Of a stretch of 32,000 nucleotides of DNA, positions 300 to 21,848 are shown in pieces. The notes under the pieces were generated by a model. The model had not been told where the DNA came from. It did no database searches and saw nothing but the letters and a program-made list of their open reading frames with translations. Origin of the DNA: Thermodesulfobacteriota bacterium (lineage in GTDB: Bacteria > Desulfobacterota > UBA8473); contig JAXHVA010000003.1 of the NCBI GenBank assembly GCA_034189035.1, positions 1 through 32,000 on the forward strand. Reading direction: 5' to 3'. How positions within the stretch are numbered: the stretch's first letter is position 1; every line of letters begins with the position of its first letter. Position numbers and translations under genes: made by a program.

Positions 300-526
300 C
301 TAGATACAATTGGAAAAGACCTCATGGAGGTATCAATATGTAAACTCCGATACTAAAACTCTATAAAAGGCTCAAAAACTATAATAACTCTCTCCTTGTG
401 GTTATAGAAAAACTAGCCGCTTAATTTTTTTGCCAGAACCTTTGTGTTTGACATGTGTTTGGTTAATACAATTTTCTTGAAGCGGTGTTAACCTAAATCA
501 TGAGAATGGATATTGAACAAATGGAA

Positions 527-905
527 ACTTCTTCTCTTTTAAAAAGTGTCGCTAAAGCAGCTCTCAAATTGTAATTACATGTAGAACTTATTCATACAGT
601 ACTCGCATTCCAAGTTGATCACCATTGACACTTGCAGATAGCCTTCATTTTTATGGCGCTGGAGTGATATAAAAAATGAAAAATGACTATTGAGTTACCT
701 TCGAATAAAAGAAATTTCGTGTTATTTAGTTAAACGGATATAATTATTAGAATTTATTGAACGATCTGTTCTCTTATTTATTAAAATCAAGACGTTACAC
801 GTAATGTTTTCGGAGCGAACTCAATAGCCGATAAATGAAATTCCCGAAAAGTATGTAAATGATGTTTCTCAAAATAGAAGTAGACAAAAAAAAAGCTTTT
901 TAGTA
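527..905 (+). repeat. Degenerate, expanded copy (H) of the nested-hairpin repeat family, subfamily 1
   Basis: tcttttaaaaagtgtcgctaaagcagctctcaaattgtaat (about 533-573) matches gcttttaaaaagagtcgcatcaacgacagtcaaattttaat of copy A. actcgcattccaagt (601-615) matches aaactcgcatccaagtgag of copy C. atcaccatt (618-626) matches the central loop. ctgttctcttatt...caagacgttacacgtaatgtttt (766-809) matches ctgttctttctt...cagacaacacacgcattaaaattt. The left inner arm is missing and the boundaries are approximate. Confidence 0.4.
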
Positions 906-1531
906 GGATAGTTAGTTGTTAATTATTCAGTATTTTTATTTTTTATAATGTCGCGAAGATATAAAGATTTCTATAATAGTAGACGATATGTCTTAAGAGA
1001 AAATACTCCGTATTCAAATATATAACCAGTATTTATAATCTGAATAAAGGAGTTTTTCTTATGAAAAGGTTGGACGTATTTATACTGCCTGCCGTATGTT
1101 TTTCGAGAAAAATAATCCTGTTTTATGCGAAAGTGTTGGAAAGATATTTTCCTGATAAGTATCTTCTCTTTTTTATGAATACACTGGATAGTAATATTCC
1201 TTCTAAAGCAGTTGGTTTTGTTATCGATACAGCAGATCAATACATTCATTATAAAGTACGTTCTTTTTTTATTATCTATAATAGATAAATGTGTCCCTGA
1301 TACTGTAGGTGATTCCAGAAAGGTTTCTTCAGTCATCGCTGGGTTTTGTAAGTATGTTCCTGATAGTGTAATCCCTGATAAGTCTATTGATGATTAGGTT
1401 AAATATTAAATTGAAATTTCATATTCCCACATTGCTATCCAATAAGCGAGTAAAGACACGCGGATAATTGAGATAATCATTTCTTAATTTGAATAACATT
1501 ACCTTTATTTAACCGCTGATTTTAATTTTAA

Positions 1532-1558
1532 TTGATTTTTTTAATGAAAGTGTATACT
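1532..1558 (+). promoter_or_regulatory. Candidate sigma70-type promoter for the lipid cluster
   Basis: TTGATT (1532-1537), a 15-nt spacer, then TATACT (1553-1558), about 55 nt upstream of the KAS III start codon. The short spacer and the AT-rich background make chance matches likely. Confidence 0.2.
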
Positions 1559-1613
1559 ATTCCATTTTTTCTTGTATTTTAACTAGGGAAAAAGGTCATT
1601 TGAGGGAAATTAG

Positions 1614-2663
1614 ATGCGATACAAAGATGTCTGCATTGAGTCTTTTGGATATGTAATACCGGAAGACATCATTACATCATTAAGCCTGGAAGAAAGACTG
1701 TCTCCAGTGTACGACAGGCTAAATCTTGCATACGGCCGCCTTGAAATGATGACCGGGATCCGTGAGCGGAGATTCTGGTTGAATGGAGACCCCCCGAGTC
1801 AAACCGGTGCAATGGCAGCAAAGAAGGCTATAGCTAACTCTGGTATAGAGAAGGATGACATCGAATGTATCCTTCATACTTCCTTGAGCCGTGACTTTCT
1901 GGAGCCAGCGACGGCCTTCTTGGTTCATGATTCCTTAGGCCTGCCTTCAACAGCGACCATATTTGACATATCAAATGCCTGTTTGGGCTTTGTAAACGGT
2001 ATGGTGTCCTTAGCAAATATGATTGAATTGGGTCAGGTAAAAGCGGGTATTGTGGTTGCAAGTGAAAGCAGTAGGCATATCACTGACACAACAATTGATG
2101 AAATCTTACAGGACCCAGAGATGACCAGGGCAAAACTCAAGCTTTCTTTTGCCTCTTTGACACTCGGTTCTGGGTCAGTGGCAGTGATTATGACCCATTC
2201 TTCATTGTCGAGCTCGAATCACAGGCTTTTAGGTGGAGTGATCCGTACCGCTTCCCAATATAACGGACTTTGCCGTATTGAAGATAATACATATTTTTAT
2301 AAGCCAAACAGCCGTCCAACTATGCATACTGACTATCAAGGTATTTTGGATAACGGGTTGCAATTAGCTGAAAAGACATGGAAGGCATTAAATAATGAGC
2401 TAGAATGGCAAAATTCTGATGTAGACAAAGTATTTTGTCACCAGGTGAGTGTTGTTCATCAAAGTCAATTGTTCGACAGATTGGATTTTTGCAGTGCGAA
2501 GGGGTTCTCCAGTGTAGAGTATTTAGGGAACATCGGTCCGGTTTCACTTCCTATTACTTTGGCCATATCAGAGGATAAGGGCCATCTCAATACTGAGGAT
2601 CGGGTTGCATTGTTGGGGATTGGCAGTGGGTTGTCTTCTATTATGCTTGGTGTAAAATGGTAA
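1614..2663 (+). CDS. 3-oxoacyl-ACP synthase III family (FabH-like KAS III)
   Basis: 349-aa ORF with GAGGG 8 nt upstream of the ATG. It carries the Cys-His-Asn triad motifs of KAS III: DISNACLGFVNG, VFCHQVS and YLGNIGPVSLP. The C-terminal GIGSGLS is typical of the family. Confidence 0.85.
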   Translation: MRYKDVCIESFGYVIPEDIITSLSLEERLSPVYDRLNLAYGRLEMMTGIRERRFWLNGDPPSQTGAMAAKKAIANSGIEKDDIECILHTSLSRDFLEPATAFLVHDSLGLPSTATIFDISNACLGFVNGMVSLANMIELGQVKAGIVVASESSRHITDTTIDEILQDPEMTRAKLKLSFASLTLGSGSVAVIMTHSSLSSSNHRLLGGVIRTASQYNGLCRIEDNTYFYKPNSRPTMHTDYQGILDNGLQLAEKTWKALNNELEWQNSDVDKVFCHQVSVVHQSQLFDRLDFCSAKGFSSVEYLGNIGPVSLPITLAISEDKGHLNTEDRVALLGIGSGLSSIMLGVKW

Positions 2664-2685
2664 TTTTACAAGAGGTGATTGCCAT

Positions 2686-3924
2686 ATGAATAACGAAGCA
2701 CGAATTGTAATAACTGGAGTCGGGTTAACTTCACCGAATGGGGATAATCTTACGGAATTCAGGCAGAATTTGCTTTCAGGAATATCCGGAGTAGGAAAGA
2801 TAAATACTCACTATATGGGGGAAGTCATTGCTGGCGTATGTGATTTTGACCCTCTTAAATATCAGAAGAAAAAGGCCCTGCGTCGTGGAACACGCGCAGG
2901 ATCTATAGCGATTTACTGTGCAAATGAGTCAATTGTCGATTCGAATATCAATCTTTCTTCTTTTGATAAATCCAGAATTGGGATATATCTTGGGATCACT
3001 GAGCACGGTAATGTGGAAACCGAAAATGAGATTTACAATTTAAAACAGTACGATTACAATGTGGATTTCTGGTCTCATCACCATAACCCAAGAACCGTGG
3101 CCAACAGCCCAGCAGGTGAGGTCACTCTAAATCTGACTATTACAGGACCGCATTACACTTTGGGCGCTGCATGTGCTGCCGGTAATATTGGGCTTATTAA
3201 CGGTTTGCAAATGCTGCGACTCAAAGAAGTGGATTTAGCCTTGGCTGGTGGGATTTCGGAGACTCCTCATACATTTGGTGTTTTTGCTGCATTTAAAAAT
3301 GAAGGTGCACTGGCAAGCCATACAGACCCGACTAAGGCATCCCGGCCTTTTGATAAGGATAGAAACGGTATCGTCGTTTCAGAGGGAGGTTGTATTTGTG
3401 CACTGGAAAGATTAGATGACGCCCTTAAAAGAGGTGCGAAAATCTATGGAGAAATAACCGGTTATGCGATCAACTCTGACGCATCTGACTTCATCCTTCC
3501 AAATCCTCTAAGGCAGGTTGAGTGCATGAATAGCGCCCTTAAAAGAGCTGGCATAGCGGCTAGTGATATCGATATTATCAATACACATGCTACTGCAACA
3601 CTAGAAGGTGACAAGGCGGAATGTAAGGCAATAAAAGAGGTCTTTGGGGCTCATTCAAATGTGAATATAAACAACACGAAGAGTTTCATTGGCCATACAA
3701 TGGGAGCTGCTGGCGCTTTAGAATTGGTAGGGAATTTACCATCATTTGAAGACCATATCATTCACCCGACGATCAATATAGACAATGTAGACTCTGAGTG
3801 TGTGTTTAAGAACCTTATAATCAACGAACCGAGAAAGATAGATAGAGTTGATTACATATTAAACAACTCATTTGGAATGCTGGGTATCAATTCTGTTGTT
3901 ATTGTAAAAAGATATAAAGGATAA
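2686..3924 (+). CDS. Beta-ketoacyl-ACP synthase I/II family (FabF-like)
   Basis: 412 aa. The N-terminus is RIVITGVGLTSPNG. The Cys-His-His triad is present in GAACAAGNIG, NTHATAT and GHTMGAAG. It lies 22 nt after the KAS III stop. Confidence 0.85.
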   Translation: MNNEARIVITGVGLTSPNGDNLTEFRQNLLSGISGVGKINTHYMGEVIAGVCDFDPLKYQKKKALRRGTRAGSIAIYCANESIVDSNINLSSFDKSRIGIYLGITEHGNVETENEIYNLKQYDYNVDFWSHHHNPRTVANSPAGEVTLNLTITGPHYTLGAACAAGNIGLINGLQMLRLKEVDLALAGGISETPHTFGVFAAFKNEGALASHTDPTKASRPFDKDRNGIVVSEGGCICALERLDDALKRGAKIYGEITGYAINSDASDFILPNPLRQVECMNSALKRAGIAASDIDIINTHATATLEGDKAECKAIKEVFGAHSNVNINNTKSFIGHTMGAAGALELVGNLPSFEDHIIHPTINIDNVDSECVFKNLIINEPRKIDRVDYILNNSFGMLGINSVVIVKRYKG

Positions 3925-3959
3925 CGTTTTTTAGCTTTTTTTAGGAAAGGAATATTTAT

Positions 3960-4211
3960 ATGACTGCAGTTGAAATTAGATCTACGATTTTAGAGGTCAT
4001 CCAGGAAATTCTTCCGGATGAAGATGTGAACAGCCTCAAGGCTGATGTCCGCATACGGGATCAGATTGAAATGGACTCAATGGATTTTTTAGATATGATT
4101 ATGGAGTTACGCAAACGTTACAGTATCATTGTGCCGGAAGATGACTATATGAAATTATTTACACTTGATAGTGCTGTGGCATATCTCGAACCGCTTATGA
4201 AAGATATTTGA
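3960..4211 (+). CDS. Acyl carrier protein (divergent, dedicated)
   Basis: 83 aa and acidic. The phosphopantetheine-site pattern is EMDSMDFLDMIMEL (DSM rather than the canonical DSL). AGGAAAGGA lies upstream of the ATG. Confidence 0.8.
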   Translation: MTAVEIRSTILEVIQEILPDEDVNSLKADVRIRDQIEMDSMDFLDMIMELRKRYSIIVPEDDYMKLFTLDSAVAYLEPLMKDI

Positions 4212-4578
4212 CCAATCTGCTTCGTGCACATTAAGGGATATTTTCCTCATTTTTCAAATAAACGAGTTTTTATCAAATAAGAGAAAATTGCCCTTTTCTT
4301 TTCATCCATCCAATTGGTTTTTAATACGATACTCCTTACATAATAGCTGATTAAAACTTAGAGGGCTGTTACCTAAATCACAGGTTCGTTTTTCGAAAAC
4401 GTATTTTATACACCCAAGACTCATAAAAAACATTTTAAAACTGACTCTTTGAGTATAAAGGGCTTGAAATTCCAAATATCAGTACGAATTCATCCAGAAA
4501 AGAAGATGCAAGGCAACGGCTAAGGTCTTTACAACTGTATCCTTTTTTGGAGGAATCACTTATCGCGAGAGTCTGGTT

Positions 4579-5964
4579 ATGGACTATGATGTTATCATTA
4601 TTGGTGGAGGAATGTCTGGTCTTGCAGCCGGTATCAGACTGGCCTATTATGACAAAAAGGTCTGTATTCTCGAAAAACATTATCGTATTGGAGGGCTGAA
4701 TTCATATTATGTCAAAGATGGACATAAATTTGATGTGGGTCTCCATGCAATAACAAATTACGTTCCTCGGGGTGTTAAATCAACTCCACTTCCAAAGTTA
4801 TTGCGTCAACTCAGATTAAAGCATGAAGATTTTGACCTTTGTGAACAGGGGATGTCGATGATCAAATTCCCTGATAGGACCCTCAGGTTTACTAATAACC
4901 TCGATTTTTTTGTTGAGGAAGTGGTTGATAATTTTCCAGGGCAGGCCGATAATTTCCAAAAGCTGATCAAAACCATCTTTGATTACAATGCATTATCTTT
5001 GGATACAAGGCCCATCTCTGCCTTTGAAGTTGTGGGATCGATTCTATCAGATCCTCTCTTAATTGATATGATCTTTTGCCCTCTCATGTTTTATGGTAAT
5101 GCAATGGAAGATGATATGGACTTCGGGCAGTTTGTTATCATGTTCCAGAGTATCTTCAACGAAGGTTTTGCAAGACCCTGGGCAGGTGTGAGGCAGATAC
5201 TCGATGTTCTCATCAATAAGTATAAGGAAAATGGGGGTGAGTTAAGGTTAAGTAGTGGTATAAAACGTATTACAGTTAAAGATGAAAAGGCCGAGTCGAT
5301 ATTACTCGAAAGCGATGACAAACTGACAGCGGACAATATCATATCATCTGCAGGTTATCTTGAAACCATGCGCCTTTTGTCAGATTACGATCCAAGAAAA
5401 TTCAAGTATGAATCAGGCCGGCTTTCATTTATAGAGTATATTATGATATTGGATAGAGAACCTGCTGAAATCGGTTATGAACAGACAATCACCTTTTTTA
5501 ATCATTCAGATCGGTTCAAATATGCAAAAGCAAAAGATCTGGTCGATGTTTCAAGTGGTGTTATATGCTGTCCTAATAATTTTCAATACAAAAAACCATT
5601 GCCTGAGCCTATAATCAGGGCAACAAATATTGCGAATTTCAATCTCTGGAATGAATTGGAACAAAAGGAATATGAAGCACAAAAGGTCAGATGGCTTGAT
5701 ACGACTCTGAAGGAAATCGTAAAGTTCATTCCCGATTTTCGAAGTTCAATACGTTATACGGACATATTTACACCGAAAACAATACATAGATTTACAGGTC
5801 ATATAAACGGCGCAGTATATGGAGGGCCGAATAAGATCAAGACAGGGAGGACACATTTAAAAAACCTGTTTATCTGTGGTACAGACCAAGGATTTTTGGG
5901 GATAGTCGGGGCAATGCTCAGTGGTATCTCCATGGCAAATCTTCATATACTTATGAGGGAGTAG
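4579..5964 (+). CDS. FAD-dependent oxidoreductase, phytoene desaturase (CrtI/CrtD, COG1233) family
   Basis: 461 aa. The N-terminal dinucleotide-binding fold is YDVIIIGGGMSGLAAGIRLA...ILEKHYRIGGL. The C-terminal GTDQGFLGIVGAMLSG segment is typical of this family. Confidence 0.8.
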   Translation: MDYDVIIIGGGMSGLAAGIRLAYYDKKVCILEKHYRIGGLNSYYVKDGHKFDVGLHAITNYVPRGVKSTPLPKLLRQLRLKHEDFDLCEQGMSMIKFPDRTLRFTNNLDFFVEEVVDNFPGQADNFQKLIKTIFDYNALSLDTRPISAFEVVGSILSDPLLIDMIFCPLMFYGNAMEDDMDFGQFVIMFQSIFNEGFARPWAGVRQILDVLINKYKENGGELRLSSGIKRITVKDEKAESILLESDDKLTADNIISSAGYLETMRLLSDYDPRKFKYESGRLSFIEYIMILDREPAEIGYEQTITFFNHSDRFKYAKAKDLVDVSSGVICCPNNFQYKKPLPEPIIRATNIANFNLWNELEQKEYEAQKVRWLDTTLKEIVKFIPDFRSSIRYTDIFTPKTIHRFTGHINGAVYGGPNKIKTGRTHLKNLFICGTDQGFLGIVGAMLSGISMANLHILMRE

Positions 5965-6033
5965 AATCCGATAACCATTCGAAGTGATTTTTATCTACAA
6001 AAAAGAGTTAAAAGATTTACCTAAGAAAAAACA

Positions 6034-7400
6034 GTGGCTAAGAAACTATTACTCATTAACCCGGTTCAGGAACCTAAGCATAATCTGGCTTGCGTCCCTA
6101 TCTTAAGGGTTCCACAAGTAGGTTTAGCGTATATAGCTGCATTAACCCCCTTTCATTGGGATATAAATATAATCGATGAGAGTGTTGAGCCTCTGACTTA
6201 TGAGGATGCCGACCTCGTTGGCATAACAGCATATACTTGCAATATTCAAAGAGCATATAAAATAGCTGAGCAGTACAGAAGAAAAGGCATTAAAACTGTG
6301 ATTGGCGGTGTGCATGCCTCTATATTGTATGAAGAAGCCATAAATTTTGTTGATTCTGTTGTAATCGGTGAGGCTGAATCTGTTTGGTCAGACCTGATCC
6401 ATGACTTCGAAAGTAATCAGTTGAAGAGGTATTACAAAGGTGAGCGTATTTCTTTAAATAACCTTGTTCAACCCAGAATGTATCTTTATAAAAGCAGAAA
6501 ATATCGAGTGAAAGATGTTGTACAAACAGCGAGAGGCTGTCCTAATGATTGTGAGTTTTGCTTAGTAACGACCCTTTATGGTCGTACCTATAGACAAAGA
6601 CCCGTAGATGAGTTACTCGATGAATTAGAAGCAATAAAACAAAAGAACGTCTTTTCCCCGGATGATAATATCTTAGGTCGCGGAAAAGAAGCAGAACAGA
6701 GGGCGATTCGATTGTTTAAAGGGATGATCGAGCGAGGATTAAAAAAACGATGGGGATCTCAAGTAGGCATTGATTTTGCGAAGAACGAGGACGTATTGAA
6801 GTATGCAAAAAAAGCCGGTTGTATGGCAGTATTCATTGGCTTTGAATCACTCAATGAAGAAGCACTTCAAAGTATGAATAAAACGAGAAACTTGGAGGTA
6901 GGTATAAGAAATTATAAAGAGATAATCCAGAGCATGACTATAACATTGGGGTAATCGGGGCGTTTGTTTTTGGCAGTGATGGTGACAAGAAAGATGTCTT
7001 TGAAAGGACAACTGAATTTGTCGAGGACGCAAAGATAGATGCAATACAACTGTCGATTCTCACCCCTCTTCCAGGGACGAGATTGTATAATAGATTAAAA
7101 CAGGAAGGGAGGCTATTGTGTACTGATTACCCTGATGATTGGCAGTATTATGATTTTCTGGAGGTTGTATTTGAGCCGAAGTACATGAGTCTTGATCAAT
7201 TGAAAGAGGGAGTTACCCAAGTTTATAAAGATACGACATCAAGGGCAAGATCACTGAAAATGGCTTTCAATTCGATGATCCAGACAAGGAGCTTTTATGG
7301 AGCTATTTGTGGGTATTTATGGAATCGTGGATACGGTTCAGTTTGGATGAGGAAATACGACTACATGAAGAGAATGAACCCTGATTTTAATTTAAAGTGA
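6034..7400 (+). pseudogene. B12-binding radical-SAM enzyme, interrupted by a -1 frame change (ORFs 6034-6954 and 6918-7400)
   Basis: The N-terminal part has the B12-binding-domain architecture (LLLINP...DLVGITAYT...GGVHAS) followed by the CxxxCxxC motif RGCPNDCEFC. Frame 1 stops at 6952-6954. Frame 3 is open from 6918 and reads HDYNIGVIGAFVFGSDGDKKDVFERTTEFVEDAKIDAIQLSILTPLPGTRLYNRL, the expected continuation of the TIM-barrel and C-terminal domain. Confidence 0.8.
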
Positions 7401-7411
7401 AGGGAAGAGTA

Positions 7412-8824
7412 ATGGTCGATAATGATTGCTTGAGGGATACAAGGTCACGATACGATGTTATTGTCATAGGTAGCGGGCTGGGGGGGCTTACCTGTGCAAA
7501 TATGCTGGCTAGAAATGGCTATTCGGTTTTACTCCTCGAACAGCACAATAAACTGGGTGGATTGGCTACCTGGTTCAGGAGAAAGGGAGGGCATATCTTT
7601 GATATATCATTGCACGGATTTCCAATCGGTATGGTTAAGACCTGTCGAAAATACTGGAGCAGAGAGATTGCCGACATGATTGTTCAACTTAAGGGAATCC
7701 GGTTTGATAACCCTCAGTTTTCATTAACCACAACCTTTGATAGAGAAGATTTTACCCGGATCCTAGAAGAGCGATTCAAGGTGCAACGCAAGGATATCAA
7801 TGATTTTTTTAATACAGCCAGGGAGATGAATTTCTATGATGATCAGAGTATGACAACCAGAGAGCTTTTTGAGAAGTTCTTTCCGGGGCGTGACGATGTG
7901 GTTCGTTTTTTGATGGAACCGATTACCTATGCCAATGGTTCAACCCTGGATGACCCAGCGATCACTTATGGGATCGTATTCTCCAATTTTATGAGCAAAG
8001 GCGTCTATACTGTTCGAGGCGGAACAGACCGGTTTATCGGAAAGATGGAAGCCGAGCTTGTAAAAAACGGTGTTGATATTGAGAAAAATTGCCTGGCACA
8101 GAGAATAACTGTCAAAGACCAAAGGGTTACAGGGGTAATCGCTAATGGGAGGATGATAGAGTGTAAGGCGGTTGTATCGAATGGCAATTTGAAATCAACC
8201 GTCCATAAATTTGTTGGACAGCAACATTTTTCGAAGGAATTCGCTTTAGAATCGAGGAATGTTCGTCTTAATAACAGTAGCTGCCAGGTATATCTGGGTA
8301 TAAAAGGAGGTGAGAGGATTGACTATGTAGGGGATTTGCTCTTTACTTCAACAGCAGAGAAATTCGATTCTGCAAAGCTCTTAAGCAAGGATATCACCAG
8401 CCGGACTTTTTCGATCTATTACCCGGAAACCCGACCAGGCTCTGATATGTATGCGATCGTTTCTTCCACCAATGCAAACTATGAAGACTGGGTAAGCCTC
8501 ACAGATGAACAGTATCAAAGCTCTAAAGAGGAACTTGTCGAGTCGACCATCGATGCTTTAGAGAAATATATCCCAGGGGTAAGAGCGAAGATTGACTGTG
8601 CACAAGCGGCTACCCCAAAGACATTTCAAAGGTACACGCTTCATGAATGTGGAGCTTCTTTTGGTACAAAATTTGAGGGATTAAAGATCAGTATGGGACT
8701 TCCGAAAGAGGTCCGGGGGCTTTTCCATACCGGGTCTGTTGGGATTATAATGTCCGGTTGGCTGGGGGCTGCAAACTACGGGGTCATTGTCTCGAACCAT
8801 GTTGATGAATACCTGAGATCCTGA
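7412..8824 (+). CDS. Second FAD-dependent oxidoreductase of the phytoene desaturase (COG1233) family
   Basis: [39 protein letters not shown] forms the Rossmann fold, and the length and C-terminal pattern fit the family. The ORF track starts at GTG 7397, overlapping the upstream stop. ATG 7412 is preferred because GAAGGGA lies 6-7 nt upstream of it. Confidence 0.8.
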
Positions 8825-8845
8825 TTTTTTTACAGGAGGTTGCAA

Positions 8846-9586
8846 ATGTACGATTTTAATGGGCAGACTGCGATTATTACAGGTGGTACAAGAGGCATAG
8901 GCAGAAGTATTGCACAGGGCTTCTTAAAAGCAGGTGCGCGCGTTATCGTTATTTACGCATCAAATGAGACTGCTGTGGCAGGCTTTAAGGAAGATAACGT
9001 TGAATTTGCTGATAAGATCGATGTACAAAGGTGTAATGTGGTCAACTATGAGGCAGTTGAGAGGCTTTTCGAATATATTGGTAAGGAATATGAAGGCTTC
9101 GATATACTCATAAACAATGCAGGTATCAGGAAAGATTCTATCCTTGCCATGATGAAAGAGTCTGACTGGCATGATGTACTCAATGTCAATCTCAGCGGGG
9201 TATTTTATATGTGCAAGTTTGCAGTAATGAGCCTGATGCGAAGACGATACGGGCGGATTATCAATATCACCTCTCCTTCAGGGAAGTACGGTTTTGAAGG
9301 TCAGGCGAATTATGGGGCATCAAAGGCAGGTATTGTTGCCCTTACAAAGACGCTTTCAAAAGAAGTTGCAAAGAGGGGGATTACGGTAAATTGCGTATCA
9401 CCGGGGTTTATTGCTACGGAATTGATTGCGGATATTCCTGAAGAATTGCGCAATTCGTATAAGGCTCAGGTTCCATTAAAGAGATTCGGGAAGCCTGAAG
9501 AGGTTGCTGCCTGTGTTCTTTTCCTCGCTTCTAAAGAGGCGTCATACGTTAACGGTACTACCCTCGAGGTCACAGGAGGATTATAA
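8846..9586 (+). CDS. fabG: 3-oxoacyl-ACP reductase (SDR family)
   Basis: The SDR motifs are TGGTRGIGRSIA, NNAG and S...YGASKAG (catalytic Ser-Tyr-Lys). AGGAGG lies 7 nt upstream of ATG 8846. The track's TTG 8840 start is less likely. Confidence 0.85.
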   Translation: MYDFNGQTAIITGGTRGIGRSIAQGFLKAGARVIVIYASNETAVAGFKEDNVEFADKIDVQRCNVVNYEAVERLFEYIGKEYEGFDILINNAGIRKDSILAMMKESDWHDVLNVNLSGVFYMCKFAVMSLMRRRYGRIINITSPSGKYGFEGQANYGASKAGIVALTKTLSKEVAKRGITVNCVSPGFIATELIADIPEELRNSYKAQVPLKRFGKPEEVAACVLFLASKEASYVNGTTLEVTGGL

Positions 9587-9587
9587 G

Positions 9588-10007
9588 ATGGAACAGGTCT
9601 TAAATGCAATACCTCATCGTCCGCCTTTTTTATTTGTTGACAGGGTCATAGAGTTGAAAGAGGATAAGATAAGGACAGTGAAAGAGGTGAGCCCGGATGA
9701 GCCTTTTTTTAAAGGGCATTACCCGGGAAATCCGATTATGCCCGGCGTATTGATCTGTGAGTCTGTCTTTCAAACCGGGGCGATATTGCTCTCAAGCATG
9801 ATGAGTGATGCAAAAGAGGGGGTTCCGGTTCTGACACGAATTCAGAATGCCAAATTCAAGAATATGGTAAAACCGGGCGATATCCTGGAGATAGATGTGC
9901 ACTTAGTAGAGAAGGTGAGCAATGCTTTTTTTCTCAAAGGCAGTGCCTCAGTCGCAGGAAAGAAGGCAGTCATAGTTGAGTTTACCTGTGCTTTGGCAAA
10001 GCCTTAA
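9588..10007 (+). CDS. fabZ: 3-hydroxyacyl-ACP dehydratase (hot-dog fold)
   Basis: IPHRPPFLFVDRV...FFKGHYPGNPIMPGVLICE is the FabZ signature, including the catalytic His and Glu contexts. ATG 9588 is preceded by AGGAGGA (9574-9580). The track's 9504 start is a spurious extension overlapping fabG. Confidence 0.9.
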   Translation: MEQVLNAIPHRPPFLFVDRVIELKEDKIRTVKEVSPDEPFFKGHYPGNPIMPGVLICESVFQTGAILLSSMMSDAKEGVPVLTRIQNAKFKNMVKPGDILEIDVHLVEKVSNAFFLKGSASVAGKKAVIVEFTCALAKP

Positions 10008-10043
10008 AGAATGGGGATTGGTTAGTCAAAGATTATCTAAAAC

Positions 10044-10313
10044 AAAACAATTTAGCTTTTAAAAAGAGTCGCATCAACGACAGTCAAATTTTAATCCGAG
10101 TAAAACTCGTATCCAAGTGAGTGTAAAAGAAGAACAGTATATCGCCATTCAATTCAGTAGCGCTATTATTATACTATTTACTGATATAAAATGTGAGGTT
10201 ATCCCCTGTTCTTTCTTAACGCTCACTAAGAAACTCAGACAGCACACGCATTAAAATTTGACTGTCGTTGATCCTTGATAACAGTTTTCTATTTCATGGC
10301 TCAAAAATGATAC
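10044..10313 (+). repeat. Nested-hairpin repeat, subfamily 1, copy A (full length)
   Basis: The outer stem is a perfect 23 bp: atcaacgacagtcaaattttaat (10073-10095) pairs with attaaaatttgactgtcgttgat (10250-10272). The inner stem is agtgagtgtaaaagaagaacag (10116-10137) against ctgttctttcttaacgctcact (10206-10227). The element fills the fabZ-fabI gap. Confidence 0.85.
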
Positions 10314-10323
10314 AGGGAATCAT

Positions 10324-11124
10324 ATGGATTTTTTAGGCATTGGAGGAAAGACATTTCTTATTTTTGGAGTGGCCAATAAAAAGAGCGTTGCCTTCTTTGT
10401 TGGCCAGGTTCTTGAGGAGTCAGATGCAAACGTTGTATATGTGGTTCGGTCAAATGAGAGAAAAGAGAGTGTAAGCAGGATTCTCCCTGGTAAAGATATC
10501 TTCATATGCGATGTGGAAAGGCAAGAAGAGATCGAGAAACTCGGGCACGACATATCCCAAAAGTATAAAAAGCTTCATGGCATGGTTCACTCTATCGCTT
10601 TTGCCAATTATGAAGAAGGGATGAAACCATTTCACGAAACAAAAAAGAGGGACTTCCTCCAATCTGTTGATATATCCTGCTATTCACTGATAAATATCTC
10701 TAATCGTTTTAAAGACCTTCTCGATGAAAAGGCATCTGTAGTCACCATATCGATATCGACCACAAAGATGGCAGCAGAAGCCTATGGATATATGGCGCCT
10801 GTAAAGGCTGCTTTGGATTCGACCATATGTTTTCTGGCCAAGTCTTTCAGCTCGTTTTCACAGGTACGATTCAATTCTGTCAATGCAGGCTTATTAAAGA
10901 CCTCTGCATCTGCAGGGATTCCTGGGTATGTGGACTATTACCTCTTTGCAGAGCAGATGGTGCTGAGAAAGAAACCCCTGGCCACAAAGGAAGTGGCAAA
11001 CACCGTAGCATTTCTTTTGAGTGAGCGATCCAGCGGCATAAATGCCCAGGGTATCATCGTTGATTGCGGGATGGCAACAAACAGCTTTGACAGGGATATT
11101 ATTAACAGGGCGATGAGAGTCTGA
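10324..11124 (+). CDS. fabI: Enoyl-ACP reductase, FabI type
   Basis: 266 aa and collinear with FabI. The motifs are [20 protein letters not shown] and the Tyr...Lys pair in [11 protein letters not shown], and the C-terminus is GIIVDCGM. Confidence 0.8.
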
Positions 11125-11157
11125 TTGGTGAATCAGATAGAGACAATGGAGAAATGA

Positions 11158-11580
11158 ATGCGGTTTCAAAGCAGCGTCGAGATCAATGCTCCTGTAGAAA
11201 AGGTCTGGGCATTGATAGATGACCTTGAACAGTGGCATCAGTGGATGCCTTCTATTCAAAAGATAGAAAGAGTATCTGAAGGTCCTCTGGATGTAGGCTC
11301 CAGACTCTCTGTTACTGCAAGGGTAAGCAGGCTCAAGGTAAGATTGCCTATGGAAATTACCGAGTTTGTCCCAAGACATTCCGTGGTAATGGAAGGAAAG
11401 GCACTGGGCACCCGTTTGGTTCGTTTCTATCGTTTTCATCCTTTAAATGGCAGGACAAGGGTTACCATAGGCGGTGAGGTCTTTGGGCTTCTGGCATGGC
11501 TGGCACATCGGGGTGGACAGAATGTATCGGATGAGATTGCAAAGGCAGCAAAAGAAAGGATCGAGTCATTAGAAAAGTGA
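11158..11580 (+). CDS. SRPBCC (polyketide cyclase/dehydrase-like, START/Bet v1 fold) protein
   Basis: 140 aa. The N-terminal SVEINAPVEKVWALIDDLEQWHQWMP is the typical opening of SRPBCC/PF10604-type proteins. Confidence 0.65.
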   Translation: MRFQSSVEINAPVEKVWALIDDLEQWHQWMPSIQKIERVSEGPLDVGSRLSVTARVSRLKVRLPMEITEFVPRHSVVMEGKALGTRLVRFYRFHPLNGRTRVTIGGEVFGLLAWLAHRGGQNVSDEIAKAAKERIESLEK

Positions 11581-12941
11581 AAAGGCAGAGCAGGTCAATC
11601 CCTTTGAATTGTGTGGATAAGTGTTTACTCGCCCTTGATGGGATAAAAGAGACTATGCTTATCCATGTGATCTTGAATCTGGAGGGGAAGATCAACCCGC
11701 CAAGGTTAAATCAGGCAGTACAGTCCGCACAAAGAGCCTTTCCCATTATGAGAACGATCCTGAAAGGGAGGTATTTCAGGATCTCTCGAGAGGTGCAGGA
11801 GGATGTGAAAGAAGAAGTCCTGACTGTTCAGGACTTTTCTGAAACCGGATATGCCAACTATGAAAGATGCCTCTTTGATTGGATGAACCAACCTCTGGAT
11901 ATATGGGAAAGGTTTCCGGTGAGAGTCCTGCTCGCAGCAAAAAACGACCTCGATTCTTCTTTGATCTTCACCTTTCATCATAGTGCAACGGACGGACTTC
12001 GTTCCCTGATATTCGTAAGGAGAGTAATCGAATCCTATAACGACGATGTTGCTTGCGATTCTCAAATCCAACAGGATATCCGTATCTCCCGAAAAGGGGA
12101 TGAATTGCTGGAATTTGCACACAGCCAGAGAAAGCGGGTAGATCGCTATTATCGAAAGATGATATCCAGCCTTTTTCGCCGATTTTTTATTGACGCTTTT
12201 CCTTTTCCAACAAGGGTATTCCATGACAGATCGGAGCGTTCCAAGGAACTCAACATCTGTTTTAATACAATAAGTTCAGAACAAAGAGAAGAGATCGAAT
12301 CCAGATCTATAGAAAGCGGTGTTGAGCTTAACGATATCCTTTTGGCAGCGTGTTATCGGGTTGTAGAAGAGTGGAATACAATGCATGGAAAGAACAGTAA
12401 TAAGATACGCATAATGGCGCCCGTGAATATCTGCCCGAAAGGATTCAGGAATGTTGTTTCGAATTTCGTGTCCTGGGTTTCCCCTTTCACCACGAAAGAA
12501 GATCGGACGGATCCGGTACGGTTGTTGAAAAAGGTGAGAAGCGACACGATTTGTGCTGCCAGAGATAGGATTGCTTTTTCCTTGATCTATTTTTTTTACG
12601 TTTGTTCCTTTTTTCCCCTGGTAGTTATGCGGGGGATGTGCAGGTATCTTATGATCTCCAGGACACATGTAGATAGCATTCTGGTTACAAATCCGGGTGT
12701 AATTTGGCCTCAAATCGGTGCTGAAGAACCGGCAGTGAGAAATATAGGCAGTTCAAAGATTATCAATGTTACCGGCTCAGCACCTGTAGTGACACCAATG
12801 GGACTCAGTATATGTGCAGGTGTATACAATAAAAACCTGAATTTCTCTCTTACGTATAGACCCGCGCTATTTTCTAAAGACAAGGCGCAGATGTTTTTGG
12901 ATATGTATGTACAAGAGATAAAAGACTATCCGGTCCGTTAG
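11577..12941 (+). CDS. Condensation-fold acyltransferase (HHxxxDG; NRPS C-domain / PapA5 / WS-DGAT-like superfamily)
   Basis: 454 aa. The catalytic motif sits in FTFHHSATDGLRSLIF at about residue 135, the usual position. The GTG start overlaps the upstream stop (GTGA). Confidence 0.65.
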   Translation: MKRQSRSIPLNCVDKCLLALDGIKETMLIHVILNLEGKINPPRLNQAVQSAQRAFPIMRTILKGRYFRISREVQEDVKEEVLTVQDFSETGYANYERCLFDWMNQPLDIWERFPVRVLLAAKNDLDSSLIFTFHHSATDGLRSLIFVRRVIESYNDDVACDSQIQQDIRISRKGDELLEFAHSQRKRVDRYYRKMISSLFRRFFIDAFPFPTRVFHDRSERSKELNICFNTISSEQREEIESRSIESGVELNDILLAACYRVVEEWNTMHGKNSNKIRIMAPVNICPKGFRNVVSNFVSWVSPFTTKEDRTDPVRLLKKVRSDTICAARDRIAFSLIYFFYVCSFFPLVVMRGMCRYLMISRTHVDSILVTNPGVIWPQIGAEEPAVRNIGSSKIINVTGSAPVVTPMGLSICAGVYNKNLNFSLTYRPALFSKDKAQMFLDMYVQEIKDYPVR

Positions 12942-12949
12942 GAGGGAGC

Positions 12950-14266
12950 ATGACAGTATCGCTTTTGAAGTTCGATGGTTTCCTCGATTCACTCCGTAAG
13001 GCTATCGAGATGTGTGGTGGTTTTGATCGACTCAAAAGTGATGACAGGGTACTTATAAAACCGAATAATTGCTTCCGGCACAGGATAACACCTCCGTTTG
13101 GAATGGTAACCACCTCAAAGATCATAGATGGAATTATACGGTTATTGCTCGAATATGGCTGTAAGGATATCTCGATTGGCGAAGGGGCAATAATCGATCT
13201 GTTTGACGATCTGAAACCGTATACAAAAAAAGGGTTCAAGGGGACAGGTATTGACAAGGTAGCAAAAAAGCACAATATAAAATTGATTGATTTTAATGAA
13301 GGTCCTTTTGTAGATATGGACTTGGAAGGTGAAAAGGTTCAGGTGTCCAAAGCTGCCTTGGATGCAGGATTTCTCATTAATGTCCCGGTACTGAAGACTC
13401 ACTTCCAGACCCGGATCTCTATGGGATTTAAGAACCTTAAAGGGTGCCTGAGTAAGACCTCAAAAAAAAAGTTTCATAATACGAACAAGCTGGATCTTCT
13501 TATCTGCCTTTTAAATGAATCCATAAAGAGCGATTTGGTTATAATCGATGGGATATATATGTTGGAAAAAGGGCCGGAAACCCTTGTTGGCAAAGCGCAC
13601 CGTAAAGATATAGTCATAGCAGGCACAGATGTGTTCAGCTGTGATACTGTTGGGGCAAGAGTCCTTGGAATCGATCCATCCCAGGTCGGTTATCTGAGAG
13701 AATTCGCAAAGCGGAACAACCGCTCTTTTGACATGAGTAGTATTGCAATCAAGGGAGAAGATATAGGGACCTGTGAGGAGAGTCTTAAGTGGCAGTTTGA
13801 ACCGGACAAGGAACTATTGGGGCCGGCGAATATCAGTGGGCTGAAATCTCCTGCTCCGGGGCAAACACTTTGCTGCGGTTGTGCGGCAACACTCGCCTTG
13901 GCACTGTCCATATTCGGCAAAGATAATCCCAATATGGATTTTGGTGATGCAAGGCTCTACTATGGCAAGGAATTGAAGGCACAAAACGATGCGAAAAACG
14001 TGTTTCTCTATGGTAATTGCGGAATCAAAACCAACAAGAGCTTAGAAAATGCCGTAAGAATAGAGGGATGCCCACCCACATTGACAGCTACGCTTATTGT
14101 CTTGATGAGAGAACTCCTCAGTAAGCCAAGAGCACTGAAGATGTTGTTGATCCGGGCTGTAAAGTTAGTGGGAATACGACTCGGCATATACAGTGAGACC
14201 TTTCCCGGCTGGGATAGATACAAAGTAAAGGAGTTCGATAAGGCGCACTTCTGGCTTAAAAATTAG
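12950..14266 (+). CDS. DUF362-domain protein with a Cys-rich C-terminal half
   Basis: 438 aa with GGAGGG upstream. The DUF362-type opening is LRKAIEMCGGFDRLKSDDRVLIKPN...TTSKIIDGIIRLLLEYGCKDISIGEG. The C-terminal cysteines are in LCCGCAAT, YGNCGIK and EGCPPT. Confidence 0.55.
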   Translation: MTVSLLKFDGFLDSLRKAIEMCGGFDRLKSDDRVLIKPNNCFRHRITPPFGMVTTSKIIDGIIRLLLEYGCKDISIGEGAIIDLFDDLKPYTKKGFKGTGIDKVAKKHNIKLIDFNEGPFVDMDLEGEKVQVSKAALDAGFLINVPVLKTHFQTRISMGFKNLKGCLSKTSKKKFHNTNKLDLLICLLNESIKSDLVIIDGIYMLEKGPETLVGKAHRKDIVIAGTDVFSCDTVGARVLGIDPSQVGYLREFAKRNNRSFDMSSIAIKGEDIGTCEESLKWQFEPDKELLGPANISGLKSPAPGQTLCCGCAATLALALSIFGKDNPNMDFGDARLYYGKELKAQNDAKNVFLYGNCGIKTNKSLENAVRIEGCPPTLTATLIVLMRELLSKPRALKMLLIRAVKLVGIRLGIYSETFPGWDRYKVKEFDKAHFWLKN

Positions 14267-14290
14267 CAGAAAAGTGACAACAGGTTCATC

Positions 14291-14310
14291 AGGGGTGTCC
14301 CCTATGTTTA
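14291..14310 (+). terminator. Weak candidate terminator hairpin after the lipid cluster
   Basis: aggggtgtcccct forms a 5-bp GC stem with a 3-nt loop and is followed by atgtttat. The stem is short and the T tract is interrupted. Confidence 0.2.
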
Positions 14311-14333
14311 TCTAAAACAAAAGACCAAGGGGT

Positions 14334-14723
14334 ATGTACATGTCACCAAAGAATACGCGGGAAGATACCAACAGGTATGATCGGATGTTTGCTGAGATTC
14401 AGCGCGACCGAGAGCAGAGAGAGAAGACATATAGGGAGCAAGCGCTTAAGATTTTTCCGTGGATCTGTGCGCGATGCGGGCGCGAATTTAAAGGAAAGAG
14501 ACTCCGGGAGCTTACTGTCCATCATAAGGATCATGACCACAATAACAATCCATCTGACGGGAGTAACTGGGAGTTGTTATGCCTGTATTGTCACGACGAA
14601 GAACATGGGTTTTATGAAGACGGAGAACCCTATGATGCACCGGAACCAGAAAGCGACCAGCAACCGTCTTCTACATACCGGCCGTTTGCCGGTCTCGATG
14701 CCTTGCTCAAAAAAAAGAAGTAG
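14334..14723 (+). CDS. yajD: HNH endonuclease YajD
   Basis: REQALKIFPWICARCGREF...LRELTVHHKDHDHNNNPSDGSNWELLCLYCHDEEH and the C-terminal YRPFAGLDALLKKKK are near-collinear with E. coli YajD as recalled from memory. The start may be ATG 14340, which has better spacing to AAGGGG. Confidence 0.9.
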   Translation: MYMSPKNTREDTNRYDRMFAEIQRDREQREKTYREQALKIFPWICARCGREFKGKRLRELTVHHKDHDHNNNPSDGSNWELLCLYCHDEEHGFYEDGEPYDAPEPESDQQPSSTYRPFAGLDALLKKKK

Positions 14724-14754
14724 TTGATCAATTTTTAACAGGTTGTTTTTCAAG

Positions 14755-15026
14755 GTAAGAGTGTAGCTTTACGAAAAAAAAGGATGACAGCAAGCAATAA
14801 GTGGTGGTCAAATTTTAATGCGTGTAGTTGTTTGAGTATCTTGGTGAGCGTTAAGAAAGGACAGGGGATAACCTTAGCTTTAATATCTGAAATAGTTAAT
14901 AATGGAATTATTGAATTGAATAGTCATATACTGTTCTTTCTTTACACTCATTTGGATACGAGTTTTACACGGATCAAAATTTGATCACCACTCATTGCAG
15001 CTCTTTTCAAAAAGCTAAACTTTTTC
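14755..15026 (-). repeat. Nested-hairpin repeat, subfamily 1, copy B (full length, inverted orientation)
   Basis: The reverse complement aligns end to end with copies A and C. The ends are gtaagagtgtagc (14755-14767) and gctaaactttttc (15014-15026). The outer stem is agtggtggtcaaattttaat paired with atcaaaatttgatcaccact. The inner stem is ggtgagcgttaagaaaggacag paired with ctgttctttctttacactcatt. Confidence 0.85.
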
Positions 15027-15104
15027 TTTGGAAAACGGCCTGTTAAGATGGGGTAAAACGAAGAGCAACTAAAAAAACTTACACACATACAAAAGGATAA
15101 TGAA

Positions 15105-16082
15105 ATGTTCAATGCAATAACAGATGTAAAGGGTATCAAGGTAGGACACGCGAGTAACTTCAAAGGCTATACAGGGTGTACGGTCATCCTCTGTGAAGAT
15201 GGGGCAACAGGCGGGATCGATGTGAGAGGTTCGGCAGCAGGAACACGCCAGACAGATTCCCTCCAGTCGCAGCATCTGGTTGAAGAGGTTCATGCTGTAG
15301 TCATTTCAGGGGGAAGCGCATTTGGCCTCAATGCCGCAGGCGGTGTGCTCGATTATTTAGAGGAGAGAGGAAAGGGGTTTCAAACTTCTGCTACAAGAGT
15401 TCCAATAGTCCCTACTGCGATAATCTATGATCTCTCATTTGGAGATTATAGAGTACGACCTACCCCTGATATGGCCTATAATGCATGTAAGGATGCATCT
15501 GCCGGGAAAGTCGAGGAAGGGAGTGTCGGAGTCGGAACAGGGGCTACTATCGGCAAGATGTATGGTATGGAGCAGGCAATGAAAGGCGGGTTTGGAACAG
15601 CATCCAGGAAGCTTTCTAATGGTCTAATTGTCGGGGCTGCTGTTGCAGTAAATGCCTTTGGTGATGTTGTAAACAATGAGGATGGTACTATCATTGCCGG
15701 AGCCAGGGATTCTGAAAAGGGATATGGGTTTGTAAATTCTTTTGAACATATAAAGAAGGGGATAGAAAGCAAAGAGGAATTCTTTCAGGATACAACCCTT
15801 GGAGTTGTGGCGACAAATGCAAAGTTAACAAAGAGACAGGCAATCAAGATTGCGCAAATGGCACATACCGGATTTGCAAAGGCAATATCTCCCATACATC
15901 TGACATCTGATGGGGATCTGGTCATTGCGCTTTCTACGCGTAAAATCGATGCGGATTTAAATATAGTGGGTCTTCTGGCTGAGGAGGCTATCATAGAAGC
16001 TGTGAAAAGTGCGATTACGGCTGCGGATGGTTTTGGAATCATACCGGCGTATAAGGATATACCGAAAAAACAGAGTATATAA
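15105..16082 (+). CDS. Peptidase family S58 / DmpA-type (P1 aminopeptidase) protein
   Basis: 325 aa. ITDVKGIKVGHASN...TGCTVILCEDGATGGIDVRGSAAGTRQTD and GVVATNAKLTK...GDLVIALST are characteristic of this family. Confidence 0.8.
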   Translation: MFNAITDVKGIKVGHASNFKGYTGCTVILCEDGATGGIDVRGSAAGTRQTDSLQSQHLVEEVHAVVISGGSAFGLNAAGGVLDYLEERGKGFQTSATRVPIVPTAIIYDLSFGDYRVRPTPDMAYNACKDASAGKVEEGSVGVGTGATIGKMYGMEQAMKGGFGTASRKLSNGLIVGAAVAVNAFGDVVNNEDGTIIAGARDSEKGYGFVNSFEHIKKGIESKEEFFQDTTLGVVATNAKLTKRQAIKIAQMAHTGFAKAISPIHLTSDGDLVIALSTRKIDADLNIVGLLAEEAIIEAVKSAITAADGFGIIPAYKDIPKKQSI

Positions 16083-17075: not shown

Positions 17076-17089
17076 TTTTTTTTGCGCAA

Positions 17090-17123: not shown

Positions 17124-17144
17124 TATTGCTAAAAGTCCTATATT
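17116..17144 (+). promoter_or_regulatory. bio operon promoter overlapping the operator
   Basis: -35 TTGACA (17116-17121, inside the right operator half-site), a 17-nt spacer, then -10 TATATT (17139-17144). It lies 55 nt upstream of the bioB ATG. Confidence 0.55.

Positions 17145-19920: not shown

Positions 19921-21848
<1,928 letters not shown>

Follow-up and report, generated by a model that had tools for sequence, protein, structure and literature searches.

The 32,000-nt stretch of DNA analysed here (the window) comes from a Thermodesulfobacteriota metagenome-assembled genome (MAG) and carries, at positions 1614–14266, a lipid-biosynthesis gene cluster headed by an OleA-family thiolase. Twelve open reading frames (ORFs), all on the + strand, were counted in the cluster. 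The first three encode the thiolase (1614–2663, 349 residues), a KAS II-type elongating ketosynthase (2686–3924, 412 residues) and a divergent acyl carrier protein (ACP; 3960–4211, 83 residues) with a DSM phosphopantetheine site. Beyond an AT-rich non-coding spacer (4212–4578, unstranded) lie two flavoprotein genes, FLV1 (4579–5964, 461 residues) and FLV2 (7412–8824, about 470 residues), separated by a B12-binding radical S-adenosylmethionine (rSAM) gene (6034–7400). They are followed by a FabG-type 3-oxoacyl reductase (8846–9586), a FabZ-type 3-hydroxyacyl dehydratase (9588–10007, 139 residues) and a FabI-like enoyl reductase (10324–11124, 266 residues), the last a divergent short-chain dehydrogenase/reductase. 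An SRPBCC protein of the Polyketide_cyc2 type with a lipid-binding or cyclase fold (11158–11580), a Condensation-fold acyltransferase (COND; 11577–12941) that resembles wax ester synthase/diacylglycerol acyltransferases (WS-DGAT) and has an HHSATDG motif, and a DUF362 protein (12950–14266, 438 residues) complete the set.

An original prediction, made from this DNA, had assigned domains to the twelve ORFs, and Pfam agrees for all of them at their respective coordinates. The tight spacing that it described is also borne out: the majority of junctions are shorter than 40 nt or overlap. Two long gaps interrupt the series, one of 367 nt between the ACP and FLV1 genes and one of 316 nt between FabZ and FabI, the latter occupied by a copy of a dispersed palindromic repeat. 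Independent gene calls in the contig L001 (L001–L035 denote the loci and contigs compared with the window) led us to revise several start sites, with 9588 rather than 9504 the most likely start of FabZ, 7412 that of FLV2 and 8846 that of FabG. Promoter and terminator scans of positions 1–15200 performed at chance level and give no operon evidence.

The first gene had been called KAS III. Pfam does place its product among thiolase/KAS III-like proteins, but family models, structural matches and catalytic residues identify it as an OleA-family thiolase. On the NCBIfam model NF006720 it scores 424.9 bits, above the cut-off of 285, and the experimentally characterised OleA of X. campestris scores 476 bits on the same model. 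Its score on the FabH model TIGR00747 is 104.6 bits, below the cut-off of 292.1. The highest-ranking PDB matches are OleA structures (3ROW, 3S1Z and 4KTI) with scores near 209 bits, versus at most 71 bits for any FabH. Residues Glu117, Cys143, His285 and Asn315 are kept in the window thiolase and in all nine relatives checked; Glu117 is the OleA-specific base (PMC7064751, citing its ref. 17). The OleA of Halobacteriovorax marinus is experimentally active in vivo (PMC7064751), and Halobacteriovorax is a relative of cassette-bearing bacteria, namely of Peredibacter sp. HCB2-198 described below. Thus, by sequence, the supposed KAS III is a member of the OleA family with a predicted head-to-head condensing activity.

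The remaining biosynthetic genes supply an elongation cycle that largely falls outside housekeeping families. The ketosynthase contains both Pfam ketoacyl-synt domains (N and C) and an intact Cys-His-His catalytic triad, which is also intact in all KAS II copies of related loci that were checked. It reaches 312.6 bits on the FabF model TIGR03150, below the cut-off of 493.75; its best PDB match is B. subtilis FabF with 238 bits. The ACP (PP-binding, 32.8 bits) lies under every curated ACP cut-off (29 versus 70.45 bits for AcpP), and its best PDB match among ACPs is the ordinary ACP 2L4B at 36.6 bits. FabG (adh_short_C2, 212 bits) scores 288.3 bits on TIGR01830, below the cut-off of 297.75, and the FabI-like protein (adh_short_C2, 177.5 bits) reaches 170 bits on the best FabI equivalog model, the cut-off of which is 362. 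FabZ, with its FabA domain, is the sole elongation protein to pass a curated housekeeping cut-off (NF000582, 137.6 bits versus 113). A tblastn search of the entire window found no fabD and no phosphopantetheinyl transferase (PPTase) gene, and neither plsX nor acc genes were seen among the Pfam-scanned ORFs of the window. Both the claimed absence of fabD, plsX and acc and the view of the cluster as a dedicated lipid system rather than the housekeeping fab operon therefore stand, the latter because the FabH, FabF, AcpP and FabI cut-offs are all missed and fabD, plsX and acc are lacking.

Identity between FLV1 and FLV2 is only 23–25%, but both are well conserved from host to host; FLV2 is 59–79% identical to its partners in other loci. 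FLV1 contains the Pfam domains Amino_oxidase and NAD_binding_8, and FLV2 matches Amino_oxidase at 62.6 bits. On TIGR02734 (CrtI/phytoene desaturase, crtI_fam) they score 62.1 and 98.6 bits, respectively, against a cut-off of 238.1, and both lie under all curated carotenoid-enzyme cut-offs. An AlphaFold2 (AF2) model of FLV1, built on a deeper alignment with Bacteriovoracia homologues, has a pLDDT of 90.5; an earlier model from a shallow alignment (pLDDT 45) was discarded. The nearest folds to the model are the gamma-carotenoid desaturase 4REP (TM 0.76), two archaeal oxidoreductases including 3KA7, and the CrtI structure 4DGK. The designation as CrtI-type flavoenzymes is thus sound at the level of fold and superfamily, from the FLV1 model and Pfam, but does not extend to the family level, where the cut-offs are missed. 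By analogy with CrtI, CrtISO and UfaD, the two flavoproteins would modify the acyl chain; their most plausible role is to insert double bonds or to shift the position of existing ones.

FLV1 matches exactly an NCBI protein of a Thermodesulfobacteriota MAG and has thousands of homologues. The best 120 are 71–100% identical to it, and the few among these 120 that carry a source name are labelled Dehalococcoidia, Anaerolineales or Planctomycetota. Stand-alone homologues with 45–54% identity occur in planctomycetes, including cultured Planctomicrobium strains (L015, L017, L018, L020–L023). Neither FLV2 nor fatty acid synthesis (FAS) genes lie near these planctomycete copies, which give no clue from context. 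As they lack the cassette, FLV1-type enzymes also appear to work outside it.

Scanning one genome per species returned 23 loci, to which further contigs were then added. This comparison reveals an eight-gene cassette of constant order, OleA-like, KAS II, ACP, FLV1, FLV2, FabG, FabZ and FabI-like, that recurs in more than 20 contigs (L003–L014, L016, L019, L024, L026–L032) with 50–90% identity to the window. By label, most of these loci belong to Dehalococcoidia/Chloroflexi, and others to Planctomycetota (a closed MAG), Deltaproteobacteria and Nitrospirae; the Deltaproteobacteria MAG L003 is the closest relative. To judge from MAG and sample names, the uncultured hosts of the Dehalococcoidia-type version would be mostly subsurface and sediment bacteria. 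FLV2 directly follows FLV1 in most copies, and the rSAM gene stands between them only in the window and L003. Many Dehalococcoidia-type loci have a second OleA-like/KAS II pair together with PPTase and FabD genes. The duplicated KAS II copies are 81–86% identical mutually and all intact.

Proteins of the window are 63–90% identical to those of counterpart clusters in other phyla, and 63–83% identical to the Dehalococcoidia versions despite the difference in phylum, indicating horizontal spread. The G+C content of the cluster is 41.8%, compared with 44.3% for the remainder of the window, and was below that of the flanks in 8 of the 10 loci measured, by 0.3 to 9 points, a further hint of horizontal exchange. 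These sequence comparisons support the view that the lipid genes form an accessory cluster shared by horizontal transfer.

The cassette is found embedded among ole genes in three lineages. A search with the flavoprotein of the Bacteriovoracia locus L025 led to the cultured Peredibacter sp. HCB2-198, whose complete genome (CP174607.1; L035) carries the order KAS II-ACP-FLV1-OleA-OleB-OleC, then two unrelated genes and OleD; FLV2-FabG-FabZ-FabI follow OleD in convergent orientation. All eight Peredibacter cassette proteins are 38–64% identical to those of the window. In the Nitrospirae MAG L019 the order is OleA-OleBC fusion-OleD-KAS II-ACP-FLV1-FLV2-FabG-FabI. The OleBC protein is a fusion of an alpha/beta-hydrolase with an AMP-binding domain and OleD is a reductase of the 3-beta-HSD family, and the best NCBIfam matches at this locus are olefin beta-lactone synthetase (OleC) and 2-alkyl-3-oxoalkanoate reductase (OleD). 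L025 itself reads KAS II-ACP-FLV-OleA-OleB, its contig ending within oleB. We found no description in the searchable literature of a cassette that is centred on OleA and brings its own elongation enzymes along with two flavoproteins of CrtI fold, or of its embedding in oleABCD; already known are the Ole pathway itself and the observation, made in 2009, of type II FAS (FAS-II) clusters with phytoene-dehydrogenase-like genes.

The rSAM, SRPBCC, HHxxxDG acyltransferase and DUF362 genes are optional companions of the cassette. L031 and L032 share the arrangement SRPBCC-COND-rSAM-DUF4389-DUF362-small gene-cassette, variants of which occur in L030 and L012. The window SRPBCC protein (Pfam, 70.5 bits) is 74% identical to the cassette-adjoining SRPBCC of L031. 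The window COND (Pfam Condensation, 53.7 bits) is 61–65% identical to cassette-adjoining homologues in L012 and L031; it scores 41.5 bits on the WS/DGAT model TIGR02946, under the cut-off, and PDB sequence searches with it returned nothing useful. The DUF362 protein (Pfam, 128.2 bits) is 53–69% identical to cassette-adjoining homologues in L012, L024 and L031, and the L030 and L031 copies share 81% identity. A candidate explanation of the rSAM gene as a lineage-specific insertion was dropped, as rSAM, COND, SRPBCC and DUF362 genes all recur beside the cassette in L030–L032 and L012.

Other neighbours were noted in Dehalococcoidia-type loci. Just 5′ of the cassette, several of them encode a 1415-residue BcrAD_BadFG + DUF2229 protein with two acyl-CoA-dehydratase-activase modules (L024:2273–6520, L026:2268–6515, L028:2280–6527, L029:563–4810). 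We take it to be a PlsA/Ger-like plasmalogen/ether-lipid enzyme, which would set the cassette in a membrane-lipid neighbourhood. In L030 (2960–8928) and L005 (634–2690), genes for a CDP-alcohol phosphatidyltransferase, two nucleotidyltransferases, a cytidylyltransferase-like protein, an MFS transporter and an LCM-type methyltransferase are placed between the COND/DUF362 pair and the rSAM gene and cassette. The nature of these intervening genes suggests polar head group synthesis.

The cluster is most likely a widespread supply module for the Ole pathway and an uncharacterised relative of the olefin pathway. We judge it rather probable that its products make, on a private ACP, acyl chains that are modified and probably unsaturated, two of which are joined by an OleA-type Claisen condensation. 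In this scheme the chain on the private ACP would be elongated by KAS II, FabG, FabZ and the FabI-like reductase; since the window holds no fabD or PPTase gene, malonyl-ACP loading and ACP priming would be borrowed from the host. FLV1 and FLV2 would set the double bonds, and the OleA-type enzyme would then carry out a head-to-head, non-decarboxylative Claisen condensation of two chains to a 2-alkyl-3-oxo acid. In Peredibacter and the Nitrospirae MAG, where the cassette is interleaved with oleB, oleC and oleD, it presumably feeds long-chain olefin synthesis. The window has SRPBCC, HHxxxDG acyltransferase and DUF362 genes in place of oleBCD, so its end product may be a ketone or an ester and not an olefin: speculatively, a ketone could form by spontaneous decarboxylation, or reduction and then esterification by the HHxxxDG acyltransferase could yield a 2-alkyl-3-hydroxy ester.

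More tentatively, the cassette could be the type II counterpart of the Pfa (polyunsaturated fatty acid, PUFA) synthase, in which the flavoproteins, needing neither O2-dependent desaturases nor domains of the FabA type, set double bonds on chains that pass to OleA; loci of the window class, be they with the B12-rSAM gene or lacking it, would then make new head-to-head lipids, either ketones or mycolate-like 2-alkyl-3-hydroxy esters. The cassette product would presumably be polyunsaturated. If true, this would explain the C31 polyunsaturated hydrocarbons of bacteria without Pfa such as Desulfotalea psychrophila. The cassette thus bears on the source of polyunsaturated Ole substrates in the absence of Pfa, the D. 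psychrophila puzzle of 2009, and on the lipids of uncultured Dehalococcoidia, and the cultured Peredibacter strain offers a possible experimental entry point.

Several points weigh against a role in supplying OleA. Searches by tblastn with the L035 and L019 proteins found oleB, oleC and oleD neither in the 32-kb window nor in the Dehalococcoidia-type loci compared, so an olefin end-point is unproven for that class. Characterised OleA enzymes take acyl-CoA and are not known to accept acyl-ACP. The chemistry proposed for the flavoproteins is read from their predicted fold. Two members of the set, the rSAM gene and a small upstream gene, are pseudogenes, and the cluster may be partly decaying. 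Finally, the PPTase, FabD and paired OleA-like/KAS II genes of the Dehalococcoidia-type loci fit a self-sufficient FAS-II in which the OleA-like protein may be no more than the initiating ketosynthase.

This last point leads to the alternative that survives best, although we regard it as unlikely: a self-contained alternative FAS-II for membrane fatty acids with O2-independent desaturation, which might be the principal FAS of Dehalococcoidia and, in this Thermodesulfobacteriota genome, an additional, acquired copy. The OleA-like protein would act as the initiating KAS III and the flavoproteins would make unsaturated acyl-ACPs for phospholipids. PPTase and FabD would complete the FAS-II in the Dehalococcoidia-type loci, the cassette has no separate FabH, and metagenome contigs of Dehalococcoidia hold very many members of the family. 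The BcrAD_BadFG + DUF2229 protein, presumably PlsA/Ger-like, the CDP-alcohol phosphatidyltransferase and the nucleotidyltransferases are neighbours that would suit a membrane-lipid role. However, the thiolase falls in OleA and not FabH models and retains Glu117, and the cassette is embedded in ole genes in three lineages. KAS II, the ACP and the FabI-like protein miss housekeeping cut-offs, and the low G+C content of the cluster relative to its flanks, in 8 of 10 loci, hints at horizontal exchange. A module that supplies OleA accounts for these features better, in our assessment.

The rSAM gene is not intact but frameshifted. Relative to the L003 orthologue, a 4-nt deletion shifts the frame at about position 6932: the N-terminal part (6034–6954, 306 residues) ends at a stop at 6954, and three-frame translation finds the remaining 150 or so residues in another frame (6933–7400). 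The intact 456-residue L003 orthologue accordingly splits over two frames of the window in tblastn, and the DNA alignment displays the 4-nt gap. The lesion is also present in L001, the Logan assembly of run SRR24907505. Against L003, the N-part has a ratio of nonsynonymous to synonymous substitution rates (dN/dS) of 0.15 and the C-part one of 0.26; neighbouring genes have 0.13–0.21, so that the inactivation looks recent. The rSAM gene is missing from most cassette copies, and homologues with 63–66% identity also occur without the cassette; an enzyme that is optional beside the cassette and found without it is not dedicated to it. One such homologue, 65% identical, stands in L033 (8918–14898) beside genes for a UbiA prenyltransferase, an FMN-dependent dehydrogenase and a second B12-rSAM protein, with another neighbour that has only a faint Trp_halogenase-type Pfam hit. 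L033 may be an isoprenoid-lipid context without FAS genes, and the substrates of this rSAM family might then extend beyond a single kind of lipid.

A second lesion lies just upstream. The original prediction described a flanking insertion sequence (IS) remnant and AT-rich DNA; the ORF concerned, at 48–299, has no Pfam hit, and the AT-rich DNA is indeed present but contains, at 986–1461 on the + strand, the decayed remnant of a conserved small gene. In tblastn and three-frame translation the remnant appears as pieces at 992–1276, 1284–1394 and 1402–1458, no two of which share a frame; the G+C content of the DNA is about 30% there. The small gene encodes 139–158 residues of no Pfam or NCBIfam family, and in almost every Dehalococcoidia-type locus it lies directly 5′ of the OleA-like gene. 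Intact copies are found at L031:13984–14457, L030:12029–12505 and L028:6693–7112; of the L003 copy, no more than the C-terminal third can be detected.

These lesions could mean that the cluster was acquired but has ceased to function in this genome and is decaying, flanked and interrupted by repeats, with pseudogenes accumulating in it. The rSAM frameshift, the shattering of the small upstream gene in its DNA of low G+C content, the palindromic repeat between FabZ and the FabI-like gene and the want of PPTase and FabD would all fit. We nevertheless hold this to be quite improbable: the other eleven ORFs are full length, the dN/dS values of OleA, KAS II, ACP and FLV1 against L003 (0.13–0.21) denote purifying selection, and both lost genes are dispensable elsewhere, the rSAM gene being absent from many copies and the small gene truncated in L003 too.

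A type II polyketide or aryl-polyene-like pigment cluster is highly improbable. The FabZ homologues of related loci have weak ApeI-like and ApeP-like Pfam matches, and on the FlxB model for flexirubin, which has a cut-off of 340, FabG reaches 246.7. Set against this, there is no chain-length-factor partner and every KAS II copy is Cys-His-His; the FabI-like enoyl reductase is conserved in the cassette, arguing for saturated chains; and the window encodes neither an adenylating starter enzyme nor a LolA-like protein or an MMPL exporter.

The original prediction proposed a ladderane-type pathway, in which a dedicated FAS-II chain would be polyunsaturated by phytoene-desaturase homologues and cyclised by the B12-rSAM enzyme into fused cyclobutanes. 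The source of the DNA is not an anammox bacterium, and the candidate anammox cluster has been described as confined to ladderane producers. As to synteny, the gene order is common outside anammox bacteria, in contigs labelled Dehalococcoidia, Planctomycetota, Nitrospirae, Deltaproteobacteria and Bacteriovoracia. In addition to being broken in the window, absent from most cassette copies and found without it, the rSAM gene, scored as its intact L003 orthologue, reaches 81.7 bits on TIGR04072 (rSAM_ladder_B12), where the cut-off is 360; its partial matches to BchE, HpnJ and HpnR score higher.

The hallmarks of the anammox (amx) proteins are missing as well. The anammox dehydratase amxFabZ has a bulky Ile69 where canonical FabZ has Gly, and the B. 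subtilis enzyme Ala (PMC10139942). The window FabZ has Ala at this site, 21 residues past the catalytic His as counted by eye rather than by structural alignment, and it is no closer to amxFabZ (7QV0/8AYB, 87.6/86.9 bits) than to canonical FabZ structures (94.6 bits). The amxACP (7QV0 chain) is not among the 60 best PDB matches of the window ACP. The anammox cluster contains two FabF homologues that form a heterodimer like that of a ketosynthase and chain-length factor (KS/CLF), one of them with a mutated triad (bioRxiv 10.64898/2026.05.19.726425); the window has no such pair but a single KAS II with an intact triad. The window KAS II scores 188 and 167 bits against PDB entries 9S5H and 9S5I, respectively, which may be the anammox FabF pair and carry no weight in this comparison. 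On this sequence evidence a ladderane pathway is not supported and is the least probable of the alternatives, scarcely credible. The combination of FAS-II, phytoene-dehydrogenase-like and B12-rSAM genes is by itself not diagnostic, such sets being common outside anammox bacteria, and a wrong ladderane lead is removed. The fallback offered by the original prediction, an analogous pathway for another polyunsaturated lipid, came close to the best explanation while missing the OleA identity and the link to oleBCD.

Several non-coding features and neighbouring genes lie in and around the cluster. The ACP–FLV1 spacer is 80% identical to L003:9118–9488 over 361 nt (blastn versus L003). It is about as conserved as the neighbouring coding DNA, encodes no detectable protein and may be an internal promoter or regulatory region. 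We considered that it might be a relic of a second OleA/KAS II pair and rejected this, as blastn found no OleA or KAS II coding remnants in it. The repeat between FabZ and the FabI-like gene (10046–10314, unstranded), which lies outside the pathway, belongs to a dispersed intergenic repeat of about 215–260 nt, bounded by terminal inverted repeats of some 30 nt; it has two subfamilies and at least seven copies in the 32 kb. Further copies lie at 14755–14998, 19667–19881, 21863–22090 and 22194–22447, and partial ones at 537–671, 25082–25186 and 28675–28839 (repeat families D1–D10 and I3–I17 of the repeat search; six copies were aligned). They are always intergenic, also among the biotin genes, and positions 10057–10285 fold into a long hairpin (−68.6 kcal/mol, z = −8.9). 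By its sequence the repeat looks like a miniature inverted-repeat transposable element (MITE) or a repetitive extragenic palindrome (REP). No Rfam family matches it, nor did Rfam match any family over the whole window. The repeat probably explains the end of the Logan contig L001 at about window position 10223.

Downstream of the cluster come genes for an HNH nuclease and an S58 peptidase, birA-bioB-bioA-bioF-bioD and then Hdr/Mvh-like redox genes. The HNH endonuclease gene (14334–14723, 129 residues) directly follows the cluster, is itself followed by a palindromic repeat copy and may mark the border between mobile or acquired DNA and core genes. The biotin set, complete from birA to bioD (16089–21848), begins 2 kb downstream of the cluster; bioC, bioH and bioW were not seen, and we found no evidence of a functional link between the biotin genes and the lipid cluster. 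At 25284–27254, two ORFs in the same frame are split by a single in-frame TGA (25863–25865) in the context FPTLDCSA-TGA-ILTPRM. The protein has FAD-binding and 4Fe-4S domains and an MvhD/FlpD-like gene follows it, and from this sequence the TGA looks like a selenocysteine codon in an HdrA-like protein.

Comparison with known systems places the cassette between several of them. It shares the enzyme families of the elongation cycle with housekeeping FAS-II (fabH-fabD-fabG-acpP-fabF, fabZ, fabI), and FabZ passes the housekeeping cut-off. It differs in that the window set misses the FabH, FabF, AcpP and FabI cut-offs, has no linked fabD, plsX or acc and keeps 63–90% identity across phyla. With the anammox candidate cluster (Kuste3603–3608), whose phytoene-dehydrogenase-like flavoprotein is Kuste3607 and whose rSAM protein is Kuste3608, it has in common the families of the ACP, FabZ, FabF-type ketosynthase, CrtI-superfamily flavoprotein and B12-rSAM protein. 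The OleA-family gene, FabG, the FabI-like gene and the second flavoprotein of the window are unlisted in that six-gene cluster (PMC10139942); conversely, the window has no KS/CLF-like pair, Ile69-type FabZ or amxACP-like ACP, and its rSAM gene is outside TIGR04072 and broken.

For the flavoproteins, the closest functional precedent is UfaD, a phytoene-dehydrogenase-like protein that desaturates a fatty acyl chain in furan fatty acid synthesis (PMC7380195), and hence a CrtI-related NAD/FAD-binding protein that adds a double bond to such a chain. UfaD differs in its substrate, a phospholipid-bound methylated 18:1, in its oxic setting and in its genomic context, and no sequence-level relationship to FLV1 or FLV2 was found. 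In Shewanella, the Pfa synthase feeds OleABCD to give the C31:9 hydrocarbon hentriacontanonaene (PMC6463001, PMC3098273). The likeness there lies in a dedicated acyl-chain factory that is genetically linked to ole genes and delivers special substrates to OleA. Pfa is, however, a multidomain type I polyketide synthase (PKS)/FAS with FabA-like dehydratase/isomerase domains, whereas the cassette consists of dissociated type II proteins and CrtI-fold flavoproteins.

The OleABCD systems of Xanthomonas, Shewanella and Micrococcus share with the window the OleA thiolase family of its first gene, with the four catalytic residues including Glu117, and relatives of the window cassette are interleaved with ole genes in Peredibacter, the Nitrospirae MAG and the Bacteriovoracia locus. 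Known OleABCD systems are supplied with acyl-CoAs of housekeeping origin or, as in Shewanella, by the Pfa synthase, whereas here OleA travels with its own elongation set and two flavoproteins. Among organisms with known products, D. psychrophila offers a parallel. It has two adjacent phytoene-dehydrogenase-like genes, DP2405/DP2406, in an FAS-II cluster (Rattray et al. 2009, PMC2649909), and it produces polyunsaturated hydrocarbons (C31:8 and C31:9) although it has no PUFA polyketide synthase, and it does not make ladderanes (PMC2649909). Compared by description only, it shares with the window a Desulfobacterota host, an FAS-II cluster with two adjacent phytoene-dehydrogenase-like genes and the absence of a Pfa-type PKS. 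By this analogy, the gene set and hydrocarbons of D. psychrophila fit a model in which the cassette would feed the Ole pathway.

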